Positions 33,001-39,000 of a DNA stretch of 64,000 nucleotides are shown here, one piece after another. The stretch covers positions 4,160,001 to 4,224,000 of the forward strand of contig OY969811.1 of the NCBI GenBank assembly GCA_963703315.1, read 5' to 3'. Position 1 is the stretch's first letter, and every line of letters starts with the position of its first letter. Origin of the DNA: an uncultured cyanobacterium (GTDB lineage Bacteria; Cyanobacteriota; Cyanobacteriia; Pseudanabaenales; Pseudanabaenaceae). The position numbers were made by a program.

Positions 33001-36000
33001 AGACGATTATCACCGCTAACAAGTTGGAGAGGCTGATTTGGGCGAAAAATCATGATTATTTGTTCTTGACTATCAATTAACCAACCAAGCTTAGTTCCCT
33101 CAGTTAGACAAGTTTGAATTTTTGTGATTAGTTTTGTTGTACTTTGATTATTTGAGAGAATCTCAATCATCCAGTCTGGAGCTCCTAAAATCGGAGAATT
33201 ATCTAGAGGTATGCGATTTTTATGAATAATCGTTATATCAGGAACTACAGAGATCTCACTCAAGATACAACGCAGTTCTGGAAAAGCCTCATAACAACTA
33301 TCAGTATTGTCGATCGCTCTGACTAAATATTTTTGCAAAAGGCTGTGGTAAAAAGTAGGCATTGGCTTTTGCAGGACTTGACCATTAATCAATTCCCAAG
33401 CTGGAGATTCTTCGATGTTGGGAAGTCTAGAAAACTCATCTAAAGTGATTGGAGAAAGGGCTGCTAAAACCATAAGCCGCTTTATCTCAACTAAAACCAA
33501 TAATCTAAACTTTATCACATCAACGCAGCAAATTTTATTGAGATTTTGCTTTGCAAAATCTCAATAAAATTTCTTACAGGGAAAATCCAACGCCACTCCA
33601 GCGCATTCTCTCCTCGACTTGGGGAATTAATTGCGTCGGCGTGAGATCTGTCTCAGGAACAATTTCATGACTGGGTAAGGCTTTTAAAATATCGATGGTA
33701 GAACGATACATCTTTAAGGCGCGATCGCGATCGCGCTCTCGACCATACATATCACCAAGGGCGAGATAGGCAGCAACAAAATAGAGATCAAGATAAATTG
33801 CCTTTTTGAGAAGCTGTTTTACTTCATCATATCTGCCCATTTCATCAGCAATATGCGCCATCAAGTAATAGGTTTTCGGAGAATTGGGTTCTACTCTAAT
33901 TACTTCTTGGCAATGGTGATATGCCGATTTGAGTTCGCCTAAGTTGGCGTAGGTCAGCGCACTCAATTGATGGATTTTTAAAGTATGTAAGCGTTTTTCT
34001 TGAATTTGATCTAAATATCTTAATGCTTCTCGATAAGCAGCCCGACTAATCGAACTTTCCGCCGCCGCAAGGCGATCCCAATCAGTTTTAATTTCTAATA
34101 GATCATGAATCTGTGTGTTAGGCACGACTCGATCTGCAAAGTTATTGGAAGCATGACGATAGGATTCCCACGTAGTACTATGAATCTCTGGTGGAATTGG
34201 CGCAGAGGAAGTTGCAGGGGATGGATTGATCGGGAAATTGATTTGAGGTTGGGAACTAGTTGGATAAGTGGAACTATTAGACGGAGGATTAGCTGGTGTG
34301 GGATAGTTGCGAAAGTCTGGACTAGTATAGGAATTGGGGCTGTTAGCATTACTGAGATCGCTTCTTTTATAAACCACCGCATCAGGAAATACATTCACTT
34401 TAAATCCATTCATGTCCTGTCCGTGTAGTTCCATGTGTCCAGCAATCAGGTAGCCATTATTTTTGAGTGCTGAGTGAAACCGACGTAAAACTTTTTTAAT
34501 TGCTTTGGGTTCAAAATAGATAAATACATTACGGCAAAGAATTAAATCAAAATTATGGAAATCTGATGACTTACTAAAATCATCGTCAACCAAATTATTA
34601 GAGTAAAAAGTCACCATTTTACAAAGGCTTTCATGGAGTCTCCATAATGCCCCTTGCTGGGTGAAATATAGGTTTTTTTGTTTATCGGTAAGGCTCCTTA
34701 AAGACCATTCGCTATAAATTGCTTGTCTTGCTTTTTGGACTACTTCAGGATTTAGGTCACTGCCGACAATGCGTAAGCGCCAATTTTGAATATCAGGAAT
34801 GAGTTCCTGTAACAAAATCGCGATCGAGTAGGCTTCTTCTCCCGTCGAACAACCAGCACTCCAAATGCGTAAGGTTTTACTCCCCTGTTGCGCTTGGATT
34901 AGCTCAGGCAAAATATTATTTTGTAATAGATGAATATGCCCCTTATCGCGCATAAAGTAAGTTTCGGCGATCGTCACTTGGCGAATTAGTTCGCGCCATT
35001 CCGATTGGCTCAGGTCTGAGGCACTAGTTAATAAGTCACAATAGGATTCGTAGGTGGATAGTTTGAGCGCCTGTACACGACTATGGATTTTTTTGCAAAA
35101 AGGCGCGTCATCTTGGGGGCGAATATATATGCCAAATCGCTCAGCGATCGCTGCTTTTAATTTATCTAAAACGGATTGAGGAATGGTAACCATTTTTATA
35201 TCTCGTAAATGAATAGCTTGGCTTCAACCCGTTCCATATTGTTATCAGGAGATTTGATTTTCACATCTCTCACTGTTATTTTATTTTGCAATTGTAACGA
35301 GATTATAGAGTCTTGATCGACTTTAGGGAAAGACTCATATTTCGACTTACGCATCAATATAATCATTTTAAAAGATATATTCTTGTTGGATTGGTCATTG
35401 CAAGATGTATCTAAAGATGAGTGTACAGTTGCGGGATGATCGATTTCCCACATCCCTCTAATCCTCAAATTACTAGCACCTAAAGGATCGATTTTATTTA
35501 CTCTGCCCAATTCATTGGTTCCCTCTATTTCTAATCCTTGAATATCATTGATGCCATCTTTTAGAGTTACTTTAATTCGTTCATAATATTCTTTGCTGGC
35601 AGCAGAACAATCACCATAAATTAGCCACAAAGAAGATAATCTATTTTTTGTTTTTTGAGTTTTTCCTGTTTTTTTAGAATCGATACAACCAATAAAGTAG
35701 ATAATATCTTTTTCATCCCAAACTTCACAATCTCGACATCTCGGAAGAATTAAAGGATTGCTGGAAAAAAGTTTTGCCGATGGATAAGAACTATTTAAAG
35801 CTATTCTTGAGGTTAACGAAGTGATTTTTTTTACTTCCACGGCATCTCCACCTTTAATCATAAAATCAGGAGGATGGTTAGCACTACCACCCCAAGAGAA
35901 AACTTTTATATGTGCTTCATCTTTTTTGCCTTTATCCTTAATTTTTACTGAGTCAGCAAATATATCTTTTGCAAAAAGTTCTAAGGCATCTCCAACAGAG

Positions 36001-39000
36001 TTGATACGGTTTTCACTGCGATAAAAATCGATCACATTAGGAATGCCGCTATCAACTACTACCTTAATAGCTTTAAGAATATTCGTTGTTGCTTGATCTG
36101 TCATATAGCCCCCATATAGTTATCCAGATATTTCTAAAGGGATTTTGAAATAGTCTGTATCCTTGATTGAAATATGTTGATGCTGATAGTTTTCTAAAGA
36201 AAAATCTAAATTCAGTTGTAGATTAATGGATTGTGCGATCGCATATCCTAAATTGACAGGAACCGCATTCCCAATCATCTTGTAAGCATTCCCTAAATCT
36301 TGATAATAGAAAACAAAATCATCAGGAAATGTTTGGATTCTGGCACATTCCCGTACTGTTAATCGACGATAAGGAAATGACGATTCTGGATCAAAAATCC
36401 ATTTGTCTTTACTGATATGAATCATCCGATTTGCTTGGGGATGGATCGGTGCATGACGACCACCCGCTTGAATGGTGAAGGATGGCTCATCCCATGTCCG
36501 CACTCGATTTCGCGACATATACATACTTGAGAAATCACCCTGCATATACTCATGGTTAGGAACATGACAATCTTTACCATTGGATTTGCTCCGACCGATC
36601 GCTGGTTTCTCAGTACCATGTAGATCCGCGATCGCCTGTTTTAGGTTGGGAATATTAGAAGATGGTGTTAATGCATTAAAGGAAAATTTCTTACCTAAAT
36701 CAGCCCGAAATCCGATAAAAATGACTCTTTTTCGCGCTTGGGGGACATGATAATGTTTGGCCTCTAGTAACTTGTAAGCGATCGAATAACCTGCTTCTTC
36801 AAAGGCAGCAATGATATTTGCCAATGCTACGCTATGTTTTTTGTGAAACATTCCCGAAACATTTTCCGCCAGAAAAAATAAGGGCTGCTTATCTTTGAGA
36901 ACGCGCACATATTCCATAAATAGCTGCCCTCGCTCATCATCAAACCCTTTTTGAGTTCCCGCTTCACTCCAACTCTGGCAAGGTGGCCCACCAATAATGC
37001 CAATACACTCAGGAATATCTTGTGAAGGGATTTTCCGAATATCGCGCCGATCTAAGACCGTATGCCGATGATTTTTGGCATAGGTTTCCCAGATTGCTTT
37101 GTCAAACTCATTAGCCCAGACCACATCAAATCCTGCTTTAGAAAAACCTAGATCTAATCCTCCACAGCCAGAAAATAGCGAAACGATTGACTTCATAGGT
37201 TATGTACTAAAGGTATGTACTAAAATTTATATGCTTTAGATTAAATTGTTATACCAAAATTAAAAATGGCTCTGCCATTTTTAATTTTAAAAACTTTTGT
37301 TGGGTTTAGTTTTTAATTCATCAAAATGTGACAACACTTTTATGAATTTGTATTATTGAGTGCTTAGAAAGTCGAGGAACTAGTTGTTTGGGTGGTGAGT
37401 ATGTGGTTCATCACAAAGGGGGCGATTTCTTGAATTGCCAGAATATTTTGGGCGGCTCCGATTTCGATCGCTACTCCCGGCATTCCAAACACAATACTGG
37501 TGGCTTCATTTTGGGCGATCGTTACACCGCCAGCTTTGCGAATTGCTAATAGCCCCGTTGCGCCATCTCGTCCCATGCCTGTTAACAAAATACCAATTGT
37601 TCTTGCACCATAGATCCTTGCGGCGGATTGGAATGTGACTGTCGCCGATGGACAATGACCATCCACAGGAAAGGCTGCCGTGTAAAAAAATCTACCGCGA
37701 TCGTCAAACTCTAACTGGCGATCCTCTGGCGCAAAGTAGATTGTGCCAGCTTCGGGCATGGTTCCCTGCACGGCAATTTTCACGGGCAGATGACAGAGAG
37801 AACCGAGCCAATCGATAAGTCCCATCAAAAAGCCGCGACTAATATGTTGTACGCATACAATCGGCGCAGGAAACCCGACGGGAATTTGGGTTAATAAAGT
37901 TTGTAATGCTTGAGGTCCCCCTGTGGACGCACCAATGGTGACTATTTGGGCATCAGGAGCGATCGCAAAAAATACAGGTGGTGGGGCTGGTTCTTTGTAG
38001 GTTTGCTTTTCGAGAGAGAGTAAAGTGTTGCGCTTAGTGCGAGTAAATACAGAAACCCCTGACAAAACCCGAATGCGTTCGATTAAGTCCTGTTGAATCT
38101 TTTTGTAATCTTCAAGCAAACCACTAGGAGGCTTAGGAAAAACATCGACTGCGCCCGACTCTAGCATTTTGAAAATGGTACGAGCATCTTCAGACTGTAC
38201 CGAAATACTAATTACCAAAATTGGGCGGGGATATTTCATCATTACCAATTCTGTGAGCTGCAAACCATTCATGCGTGGCATATGGTAATCGGTACAGATC
38301 ACATGGGGATTTACCTGTGGCAACAGGGCAAGGGCTTCAATCCCATCTTTGGCACAACCCACTACTTCGATATCGGGGGCTTGCGAGAGAATACGCTGAA
38401 GAATCTCTAGGGCAATATGTGAGTCATCAACCAGTAATACACGAATCGGCGGCTTAGACATTTAGATCAGCCTCCCTAGTGTCTCTAAGAGAACGTTTTG
38501 ATCGAAGGCACTCTTGACGATGTAAGCATTGGCTCCCACCTCTGCCCCACGTCGTTTATCTTCTTCCGAAGCAAGGGACGTAACCAGAATTACGGGCAGA
38601 TCGGTATATTCCTTGTGCTGACGGATGCGGGCAGTCAGTTCTAAACCATCGAGGTGAGGCATTTGAATATCGGAAACGACAGCATCAACATTTTTGGTGC
38701 GTAATTTATCGTAGCCATCCAAACCATCGACTGCTGCAATGACTTCATAACCAGCGTTTTCGAGAATACGTTTGACTTGGGTACGGACTGTTATCGAATC
38801 TTCGACCATTAAGACTATTTTCTTGCGTTGTACGGATTCTAACAGTTTACTGGTTGAGATAAATCCTGAGCGTTTACGTGCCGATTTTAGTAGGTCAGAT
38901 GGGTTTAAGACCATGCAGACTTCACCAGTGCCGAGGATGGTCGCGCCGCTAACATTGCGAATGCGTTTCAGGAGCTTGCTTTGCGGTTTCATGACCACAT

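Follow-up and report, generated by a model that had tools for sequence, protein, structure and literature searches.

Palindromic and degenerate-palindromic sites of Type II restriction-modification (R-M) systems are under-represented in prokaryotes, including the sites of systems carried only by relatives (Rusinov et al. 2015, PMC4687349). In that paper, whose text does not contain the terms 'amino acid' or 'codon', avoidance in a genome lacking the enzyme is regarded as the vestige of a lost system. Lytic dsDNA phages avoid the Type II sites of their hosts more than temperate phages do (Rusinov et al. 2018, PMC6286503; review, PMC8410138), and the review describes avoidance as mainly synonymous, adding that a nonsynonymous share cannot be excluded. 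In Helicobacter pylori, both the reading frame and purifying selection acting on proteins constrain methylation motifs, and most motifs are lost through silent C-to-T changes (PMC10423294). The cyanobacterial motif HIP1 is selected irrespective of frame, but it is enriched and not avoided (PMC5861425, PMC4390886).

The genome of an uncultured cyanobacterium (Pseudanabaenaceae) resembles these cases and departs from each of them. Avoidance has been kept up after the congeners split and reaches protein sequence; residues change while deamination products are scarce; and one phage of the genus has three entire dipeptide classes at zero. Site avoidance itself is well known; as to its protein-level effect, no report of dipeptide loss through site avoidance was found in the literature searched, older classic papers apart.

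The 4.57-Mb genome contains 269 GGCC, 535 CCGG, 989 GGWCC and 983 CCWGG sites, which correspond to 0.024, 0.065, 0.25 and 0.19 of the first-order Markov expectation. The depleted words, namely these four and 28 hexamers, are palindromes or degenerate palindromes, which we take to correspond to named Type II enzyme specificities. A list of 62 avoided words was set from DNA counts alone, and WP, GP and PG are the only dipeptides of 400 without any spelling free of these words, given that Trp-Pro is always TGG CCN, Gly-Pro GGN CCN and Pro-Gly CCN GGN. The survey's finding that the three dipeptides cannot be encoded without a purged site therefore stands, except for the ScrFI-type site assigned to Pro-Gly. 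CCGG and CCWGG are each purged on their own and together close Pro-Gly, so that no ScrFI-type enzyme is needed. A single CCNGG (ScrFI-type) enzyme was rejected as the source of the Pro-Gly loss, since CCGG is also purged outside CCNGG. Among the surviving PG pairs, neither the CCWGG nor the CCGG spelling was favoured (471 of 1,405 are CCGG, 33.7% expected). In silent contexts the sites are purged to 0.001-0.026, and the surviving sites are nearly all forced by protein: 934 of 983 CCWGG and 471 of 535 CCGG are in-frame PG, and 937 of 989 GGWCC are in-frame GP. The surviving non-coding sites concentrate at two rRNA operons.

With our own gene calls (4,137 genes and 1.30 M residues over the whole genome), WP, GP and PG were again the lowest three of the 400 dipeptides (0.16, 0.27 and 0.40), with observed/expected counts of 115/736 (0.156), 976/3552 (0.275) and 1405/3552 (0.396), respectively. 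The fourth lowest was HM at 0.61 (0.58 under a within-protein expectation). His-Met was considered as a partly forced pair and rejected; the next codon is irrelevant (0.56 versus 0.67), and the pair is low in outgroups too. Removal of redundant proteins left the three values unchanged at 0.16, 0.28 and 0.40, and the depletion was gone (0.79-1.09) when the same residues were spaced 2-4 apart. In the window, the 64-kb stretch of DNA that was analysed, the counts were 1/9.0 for WP, 18/59.6 for GP and 44/59.6 for PG. GP and WP are also somewhat low elsewhere, as had been cautioned (0.60 and 0.79 in E. coli; 0.4-0.8 and 0.5-0.96 in cyanobacteria with a mild GGCC bias). Outgroup baselines were 0.99 for PG, 0.67 for GP and 0.64 for WP, and since those of GP and WP lie at about 0.65, the true drops are 2.5-4-fold: about 2.5-fold for PG, 2.4-fold for GP and 4-fold for WP. 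The shortfall against the outgroup-baseline prediction is about 3,900 pairs. HIP1, with 8,231 copies in this genome, leaves the mirror-image trace in enriched dipeptides (DR 1.87, AI 1.52, IA 1.49).

A cause at the level of protein or translation, such as ribosome stalling at proline pairs, folding or low GC, would make the DNA pattern a by-product. GP and WP fall below 1 in most genomes examined, and the Pro and Gly contents here are at the low end, matching GC; such a cause may explain the baseline of about 0.65. For the excess over the baseline it is refuted. The purge of these words extends to the other reading frames and to DNA outside genes, and PW, PD, PE, DG and the gapped pairs are normal. 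In addition, the word list derived from DNA predicts depleted tripeptides: the forced tripeptides WDP (4/35.7), MDP (8/42.0) and WAP (11/39.7) rank 1-3 from the bottom of 6,799, against a background in which outgroups are also low in forced tripeptides of this type (0.37-0.47). We give this explanation next to no weight.

The survey had placed a HaeIII-type R-M pair in the window as the resident system. Both genes are intact (Table 1), and the pair resembles the known HaeIII/NgoPII system in that an M.HaeIII-like methyltransferase adjoins a separate NgoPII-family endonuclease. The best solved-structure match of the methyltransferase is M.HaeIII (389 bits over residues 3-325; M.HhaI, 118 bits), and its predicted specificity is GGCC. 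The endonuclease gene lies 15 bp downstream on the same strand, has a GC content of 33.8% and contains none of the avoided words. The specificity of NgoPII is GGCC, and by family membership the pair is predicted to form a GGCC-cutting system. The orthologue of the methyltransferase in L164 reads GGSPC at the position of the catalytic GGPPC motif. The pair differs from the known system in being inserted between cheB and cheR and patchy in the genus, its activity and specificity being predicted. The upstream flank is presumably cheB-type, judging from its translation. G083 represents the empty site, with cheB 12 bp from cheR. All five congeners searched gave 8-48 matches per genome, and the repeat of about 110 bp in the intergenic gap makes up the majority of them. 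This resident pair cannot on its own account for the genus-wide purge: it is an insertion, its endonuclease family occurs in 9 of 44 genus genomes, and TGGCCA is scarce in all 44.

Table 1. Features of the R-M locus and of the window as a whole.
Feature	Position	Strand	Evidence
cheR-TPR chemotaxis gene, downstream flank of insertion	33574..35193	-	PF01739 and TPR
Type II restriction endonuclease, NgoPII family, 302 aa, intact	35196..36104	-	PF09521, 320 bits, whole profile
C5-cytosine DNA methyltransferase, M.HaeIII-like, 358 aa, intact	36120..37196	-	PF00145, 320 bits; TIGR00675; both above cut-off
Surviving GGCC site	36985..36988	-	Forced by Gly-Pro of the methyltransferase catalytic GGPPC motif
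AT-rich intergenic repeat, about 110 bp, in the cheB-methyltransferase gap	37248..37355	.	Repeat matches in congeners
cheB-type chemotaxis gene, upstream flank of insertion	37364..38461	-	82% match to G083
Genome-wide purge of GGCC, CCGG, GGWCC, CCWGG and 28 hexamers, with WP, GP and PG depletion	1..64000	.	Genome-wide and window counts

By family name, putative cognate systems are present for GGCC (the window pair) and GGNCC (L002, TdeIII family). Three full-length C5 methyltransferases were found and no PF01555 match. The families searched yielded neither a methyltransferase nor an endonuclease for CCGG or CCWGG on the one contig of this genome, from which plasmids may be missing, so the present-day agent for these sites is unseen here. 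The MspI search matched nothing in any genome and carries no weight. Cognate endonuclease families for CCGG and CCWGG (HpaII, MvaI/BcnI and LlaMI) are present in close relatives: the 44 genus genomes contain NgoPII in 9, TdeIII in 16, HpaII in 9, MvaI/BcnI in 11 and LlaMI in 3. Seven of the 11 MvaI/BcnI matches are strong, and three weak ones are the same as the LlaMI matches; the LlaMI family is absent from this genome and from 40 of 43 congeners. An EcoRII-type enzyme was rejected as the CCWGG agent, EcoRII-C occurring in 0 of 44 genus genomes. Loss of an orphan GGCC N4-methyltransferase was dropped as a trigger, given that the family search over 43 genomes cannot split the two classes; the sole PF02086 protein of this genome aligns with Dam-type enzymes at the recognition hairpin, which suggests that the orphan is absent.

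The failure to find CCGG and CCWGG enzymes here fits a one-time ancestral purge that has not decayed, in line with the published reading of such avoidance as the trace of a lost system (PMC4687349). The congeners, however, are about 0.7-0.9 substitutions per fourfold site apart and differ at 46-51% of fourfold sites, and the sites have stayed out: differences to C number 723 of 2,652 in control contexts versus 1 of 785 at CCGG-forming positions, C is the last base of a single codon among 1,570 Ala/Thr/Ser-Gly codons, and CCGG in silent contexts stands at 0.001. As a full explanation a relic is thus refuted and has almost no probability left; it could still hold for brief intervals between one arrival of an enzyme and the next.

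Polyploidy occurs in cyanobacteria. Sites could also be lost by biased transmission: a cut allele would be mended from a copy without the site, or give way to one, the copy being on another chromosome of a polyploid cell or on incoming DNA, which escapes restriction only when it has no sites. This would be a weak drive and not a fitness cost to the host; it may fix mildly harmful residue changes, would involve the same enzymes and the same protein outcome, and may join selection. It agrees with a purge that is uniform over the 44 genus genomes despite their differing enzyme sets and persists in the absence of a resident enzyme. However, it is unneeded for the phage clade described below, and self-restriction costs have been documented for EcoRI (PMC8410138). 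We consider biased transmission unlikely as the main driver, ahead of the other alternatives.

Across genomes, each dipeptide tracked the sites that it forces. G066, in which GGCC is purged and CCWGG intact, had WP 2/48, GP 0.30 and PG 0.96; G042 had 0.26, 0.40 and 0.94; and G071, with all sites purged, had 0.17, 0.19 and 0.60. G071 and G042 are alike in GC and unlike in pattern, a further point against a protein-level cause. The control pattern of purged GGCC with near-normal PG, which the survey had drawn from G018, was recovered in G066 and G042; in our set, the label G018 belongs to a congener that has purged both sites. Over 12 related genomes, the rank correlation with GGCC was 0.88 (rho) for GP and 0.69 for WP; for PG it was not clear (0.53, p = 0.08; 0.36, p = 0.25). 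G055 is an exception, with GGCC down to 0.16-0.20 and WP still 0.78.

In aligned orthologues from our own samples (outgroups at 120-400 kb each, own gene caller, mostly higher GC), the pair was present only elsewhere versus only here at 322/30 positions for PG, 92/16 for GP and 37/1 for WP. Control pairs, counted over all 11 sampled genomes, came to 373/372 (PE), 289/251 (DG), 30/26 (PW) and 311/267 (PD). The asymmetry reported before was thus reproduced, and the surviving pairs were likewise conserved, 91% of PG, 90% of GP and 87% of WP being common to the outgroup, compared with 43-88% for other P-, G- and W-containing pairs. The claim that avoidance drove amino-acid replacements held in so far as proteins changed; faster loss of conserved pairs was found for PG (55/84 kept versus 1,442/1,710, p = 3e-5) and not for GP (41/48 kept, p = 1), and for WP the 3/5 kept are too few. 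A large part of the deficit may be new pairs that were never fixed and not old pairs replaced. PG was substituted by structurally mild pairs (AG, PN, SG, EG). Walker A motifs showed no significant loss of GP (46/187 versus 27/80, p = 0.14) or PG (22 versus 10, p = 0.84), indicating that needed pairs survive.

The substitutions also bear on mutation pressure, by which deamination of 5-methylcytosine to thymine would erode sites and dipeptides without selection, a choice the survey had left undecided. The two resident C5 methyltransferases that pair with the GGCC- and GGNCC-type endonucleases could supply such pressure, deamination is reported to be a main driver of ACGT loss in H. pylori (PMC10423294), and Gly to Asp/Glu changes in PG were slightly raised (26/122 versus 140/981, p = 0.04). 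The other deamination products, however, were under-represented: Pro to Leu 3/171 versus 38/657, Gly to Arg/Ser 14/122 versus 228/981, and Pro to Ser in GP 9/71 versus 123/766. We take the inner C as the methylated position. After a G-ending codon, Ala is written GCC 47 times against 5,006 expected, even though Val or Thr would be the product if the inner C deaminated at this place; the Met-Ala pair is at a normal level (1.08). The purged third positions show no T excess, GACC is at 0.67, and no methyltransferase for CCGG or CCWGG was found. A T deficit beside purged sites was inconsistent over nine genomes, and we limit the statement to 'no T excess'. Deamination is thereby largely refuted and very improbable.

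We next turned to phages and other genera. Pseudanabaena phage PA-SR01 (137 kb, about 39,800 residues) has 0/15 WP, 0/89 GP and 0/89 PG, 194 pairs being expected in total; these are its only empty dipeptides, and the 62 words avoided by the host occur four times altogether. All 14 related viral loci have zero WP, GP and PG in 55,111 residues. The mirror of the host pattern is complete in PA-SR01, Pam2 and these 14 loci; in 9 of the 11 phages deposited as Pseudanabaena phages the three pairs are kept and the pattern is absent or partial. As an anecdotal observation, two PG pairs of E. coli ribonucleotide reductase align to other residues in the PA-SR01 enzyme. In other genera, 31 loci with a related HaeIII-type methyltransferase had GGCC at 0.15 and WP at 12/75 (0.16), the lowest of 392 dipeptides. 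The forced tripeptides, the genus phage and the HaeIII-type loci elsewhere, all counted in support, are predictions absent from the survey.

Collectively, this evidence supports the conclusion that avoidance of DNA sites altered protein sequence. Long-term selection against cleavable sites, exerted by Type II R-M systems that come and go in the genus, probably purged the sites and reshaped the proteins. Patchy systems acting over a long time would have removed GGCC, CCGG, GGWCC, CCWGG and about 28 hexamers wherever a silent change sufficed. Trp-Pro, Gly-Pro and Pro-Gly have no silent escape, so new pairs are rarely fixed; dispensable pairs would give way to mild substitutes and those essential to a protein would stay. 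In one lytic phage clade of the genus, a single failure to keep a site uncut would end the infection and could drive the pairs to zero. With cleavage as the probable cost, the 40- to 1000-fold silent-context purge would correspond, on a log scale and at an assumed equilibrium, to a scaled selection of about 4-7 units for each site.

Avoidance is usually viewed as an effect on synonymous codons, and here protein sequence is affected. The system contains its own scale, in which the silent-context purge measures how costly a site is and the surviving share of forced pairs tells how many replacements cost more. The cost of restriction sites in a cell's own genome, long debated, thereby becomes measurable, and for this genus the vestige reading is disfavoured. 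A cause of this kind at the DNA level can go unseen in dipeptide statistics and in substitution models, as it can in codon-pair methods normalised to dipeptide counts (as in PMC2585594). The list of avoided words is of practical use for Pseudanabaena genetics, and zero WP, GP and PG is a simple signal for assigning phages to hosts. A broader and apparently undescribed rule is, in our judgement, an evenly balanced proposition: R-M pressure would set which short peptides the proteins of a lineage can hold, a genus-wide pool of mobile enzymes would keep sites out even of members without the enzyme, hundreds of otherwise disfavoured substitutions would have been fixed at conserved Pro-Gly turns, and lytic phages would drop the three dipeptides. 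If this is true, the restriction repertoire of a host could be inferred from the dipeptides missing from its proteins alone, and the surviving pairs would mark residues costlier to replace than a measurable threshold.

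The window is part (4,160,001-4,224,000) of a single-contig genome of 4.57 Mb and 42% GC. Among named relatives, a Pseudanabaena cinerea record comes closest to its methyltransferase locus and has an identical gene order, which suggests that the genus is Pseudanabaena. A purpose-written hexamer-model caller gave 4,137 genes with 1.30 M residues and a coding fraction of 86%, and the observed/expected counts over the whole proteome were 115/736 for Trp-Pro (WP), 976/3552 for Gly-Pro (GP) and 1405/3552 for Pro-Gly (PG). These independent calls bear out the survey's finding that the three are the most depleted of the 400 dipeptides, the next lowest standing at 0.61. 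The depletion persisted without redundant proteins and was gone at residue spacings of 2-4; it is therefore a property of adjacent codons. HIP1 (GCGATCGC) occurs in 8,231 copies genome-wide, and the most enriched dipeptides include DR (1.87), AI (1.52) and IA (1.49), a mirror image of this depletion.

Genome-wide, GGCC occurs 269 times, CCGG 535, GGWCC 989 and CCWGG 983 times, and 28 hexamers lie below 0.25 of expectation, the majority below 0.1. The purged hexamers include non-palindromic members of degenerate palindromes, among them GRCGYC, GRGCYC, CYCGRG, RCATGY and CMGCKG, these being known Type II specificities. Where a site-avoiding synonym is available, the purge is 40- to 1000-fold (observed/expected 47/5006 and 14/3116 for GGCC, 4/3519 and 3/2373 for CCGG, 18/703 for GGWCC, 6/891 and 14/1015 for CCWGG). 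The surviving sites are those forced by the protein: CCWGG encodes in-frame Pro-Gly in 934/983 cases, GGWCC in-frame Gly-Pro in 937/989, CCGG Pro-Gly in 471/535, and GGCC Trp-Pro or Gly-Pro in 154/269, and survivors outside coding sequence cluster at both rRNA operons. When all spellings of all dipeptides were enumerated against the 62 avoided words, only WP, GP and PG had no site-free spelling, and three tripeptides, WDP, MDP and WAP, were further forced. With expectations drawn from dipeptide counts, these three (0.11, 0.19 and 0.28) ranked first, second and third from the bottom of the 6,799 tripeptides with an expectation of at least 30; the pooled outgroups, which have some avoided words in common with this genome, likewise show low values (0.47, 0.37 and 0.39), and the ranks therefore overstate the contrast. 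Strong depletion of DQ (0.26) and DH (0.43) in a sample of comparison genome G068 (L030-L049), with DH at 0.47 around the HaeIII-type loci L165-L195, is probably another forced-site case, through the spellings GAT CA and GAC CA.

The comparison samples comprised 11 other cyanobacteria (120-400 kb each), three congeners and 200 kb of E. coli. PG ranged from 0.80 to 1.10 across the ten genomes whose CCWGG was at least 0.44, and was 1.05 in E. coli, 0.60 in G071, where both PG sites are purged, and 0.33-0.49 in congeners. In G066, a member of the same family in which GGCC is purged and CCWGG kept, WP was 2/48, GP 0.30 and PG 0.96; G042, from a different family, gave 0.26, 0.40 and 0.94. G055 fits poorly, having GGCC at 0.16-0.20 yet WP at 0.78. 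Across 12 related genomes, the rank correlation with GGCC was 0.88 for GP and 0.69 for WP, and that of PG was 0.53 with CCGG (p = 0.08) and 0.36 with CCWGG (p = 0.25). GP and WP are also low in other cyanobacteria, as had been cautioned, lying below 1 almost everywhere sampled. Against pooled baselines of 0.99 (PG), 0.67 (GP) and 0.64 (WP), the studied genome lacks about 2,100 PG, 1,400 GP and 360 WP pairs.

The orthologue comparison used those 885 of the 1,934 sampled proteins that reached 45% identity and 60% coverage; they yielded 202,493 well-aligned pair positions. With each position counted once, the reported asymmetry was reproduced, outgroup-only versus here-only occurrences being 322 vs 30 for PG, 92 vs 16 for GP and 37 vs 1 for WP. 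After correction for residue use, WP and PG stood at the bottom of about 390 pairs, and GP ranked fifth to eighth or lower, varying with the outgroup set. Where at least two outgroups agree, PG was kept at 55/84 positions, the remaining Pro-x and x-Gly pairs at 1,442/1,710 (p = 3e-5 for the difference) and WP at 3/5; an excess loss of conserved GP was not seen at such positions (41/48 kept). That avoidance drove the replacement of conserved amino acids is thus shown for PG and not for GP, and WP offers too few cases. From the 19-point excess loss we infer driven PG replacements at a few hundred sites genome-wide; the remaining deficit may consist of new pairs that were never fixed. The substitutes among the 322 are mild (AG 59, PN 35, SG 23, EG 21), and where the Gly of PG was replaced, Asn was the substitute in 28% of cases versus 10% elsewhere, in keeping with a turn position.

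Deamination of methylcytosine would also remove sites and dipeptides, and a slight rise in replacement of the Gly of PG by Asp or Glu (26/122 vs 140/981) points that way. However, the expected deamination products Leu (for Pro; 3/171 vs 38/657 background) and Arg or Ser (for Gly; 14/122 vs 228/981) were rarer than background. After a G-ending codon, the Ala codon GCC was observed 47 times against 5,006 expected, with Met-Ala normal, and deamination there of the inner C of GGCC, the methylated position, could yield only Val or Thr. No T excess was found at purged third positions. Collectively, these results indicate that methylation-driven mutation is not the main cause. The dipeptide effect is real and well beyond chance, and its best explanation is that restriction sites have long been selected against, with the effect extending into protein sequence.

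Phage provide a striking extreme of dipeptide loss. The Pseudanabaena phage PA-SR01 (137 kb, 39.5% GC) has zero GGCC, CCGG, GGNCC, CCNGG and GATC, with GCGC normal, and four occurrences in total of the host's 62 avoided words; 27 further hexamers are missing, and the host's list contains most of these. Its only empty dipeptides are WP (0/15), GP (0/89) and PG (0/89). Its relative Pam2 showed the same pattern across the 50 kb examined, as did 14/14 related IMG/VR loci (70-83% protein identity; WP 0/24, GP 0/123, PG 0/123), all of these forming one clade and not independent cases. Eighteen distant viral loci pooled to WP 37/38, GP 50/185 and PG 131/185, and one of them, L253, has zero as well. 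Nine other phages deposited with a Pseudanabaena host (L213-L215, L217-L222; 36-50 kb examined in each) retain the dipeptides, and the words avoided across the genus are not avoided in them. Eight have 54-73% GC, and annotation gives base-modification genes in two; different true hosts or protected DNA may be the reason, which would leave Pan5 (43.6% GC) unaccounted for. The recorded hosts of all nine may be worth verifying. The host genome is GATC-rich, yet the 137 kb of PA-SR01 (L206-L208) lack GATC entirely. A Pam2 gene directly after terminase, which the depositors annotated as botulinum neurotoxin type B, is probably mislabelled; its PA-SR01 counterpart is a hypothetical protein of almost equal length.

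The HaeIII-type pair reported in the window was upheld: sequence matches identify an intact M.HaeIII-like methyltransferase and an NgoPII-family endonuclease, lying between cheB and cheR. In comparison genome G083 these two genes are 12 bp apart with no pair between them, and the window pair is therefore an insertion. The Gly-Pro beside the catalytic cysteine (GGPPC) is lost in the P. cinerea orthologue (GGSPC). Upstream of the methyltransferase, the intergenic space holds an AT-rich repeat that has many copies in 5/5 congeners searched; in P. cinerea the genes on either side are 49 bp apart, so the repeat is absent there. The genome carries a second pair, and a third full-length C5 methyltransferase, presumably a CGATCG orphan, with no endonuclease among the neighbouring genes. 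No CCGG or CCWGG enzyme was found in the single contig. The one D12-class methyltransferase found looks Dam-like, so this genome may lack the GGCC N4-methyltransferase that is widespread among cyanobacteria.

Positions of the features discussed
Feature	Location	Remark
NgoPII-family endonuclease	window 35196-36104 (-)	
C5 methyltransferase	window 36120-37196 (-)	M.HaeIII-like
Intergenic repeat	window 37248-37355	~110 bp
Methyltransferase orthologue, P. cinerea	L164:10001-11062	
Repetitive protein, 2,127 aa	window 22757-29140	rich in Thr/Ser/Asn; probably a surface adhesin
Low-GC stretch	window 48001-50000	GC 30% vs 42% in surroundings; possibly a recent import
Second pair	contig 4.05 Mb	TdeIII family
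D12-class methyltransferase	L005:1393-2274 (contig 2.615 Mb)	Dam-like appearance
Four proteins, 957-1,162 aa	contig 1.17, 1.66, 2.47, 2.58 Mb	adenine-methyltransferase motifs; probably fused restriction-modification enzymes
Pam2 gene after terminase	L216:2064-3905	

Among the 44 genus genomes, the NgoPII family occurs in 9 and a methyltransferase at least 60% identical in 26; TdeIII, HpaII, MvaI/BcnI and LlaMI endonucleases occur in 16, 9, 11 and 3, respectively. Every one of the 44 has few copies of TGGCCA, ACCAGG and GGACCA. In congeners with 46-51% fourfold-site difference, a C stood in one of the 1,570 codons in which it would create CCGG, whereas control contexts showed a C difference at 27% of positions. 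At such divergence, CCGG exclusion has been kept up, not just inherited. On the simplest reading, enzymes from the genus pool would revisit recurrently and keep sites out; the main rival, biased transmission, in which site-free alleles are preferentially passed on, is compatible with the same data.

The effect extends beyond the studied genome. In the surroundings of 31 related methyltransferase loci from other genera (six non-cyanobacterial by title), GGCC was 0.15; WP, at 12/75, ranked lowest among 392 pairs, with GP at 0.47 and PG at 0.76. Pseudanabaena is an extreme case because all three pairs are closed. Site avoidance is established in the literature, including for enzymes present in relatives only (PMC4687349), and a review leaves room for nonsynonymous contributions (PMC8410138); a term search of a phage site-avoidance survey (PMC6286503) turned up neither amino acids nor codons. 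Searches of the open literature brought up no account of dipeptide loss through site avoidance, and older subscription papers may hold a prior remark. Restriction-site avoidance is thus known, and what is new here is a variant that reaches protein sequence.
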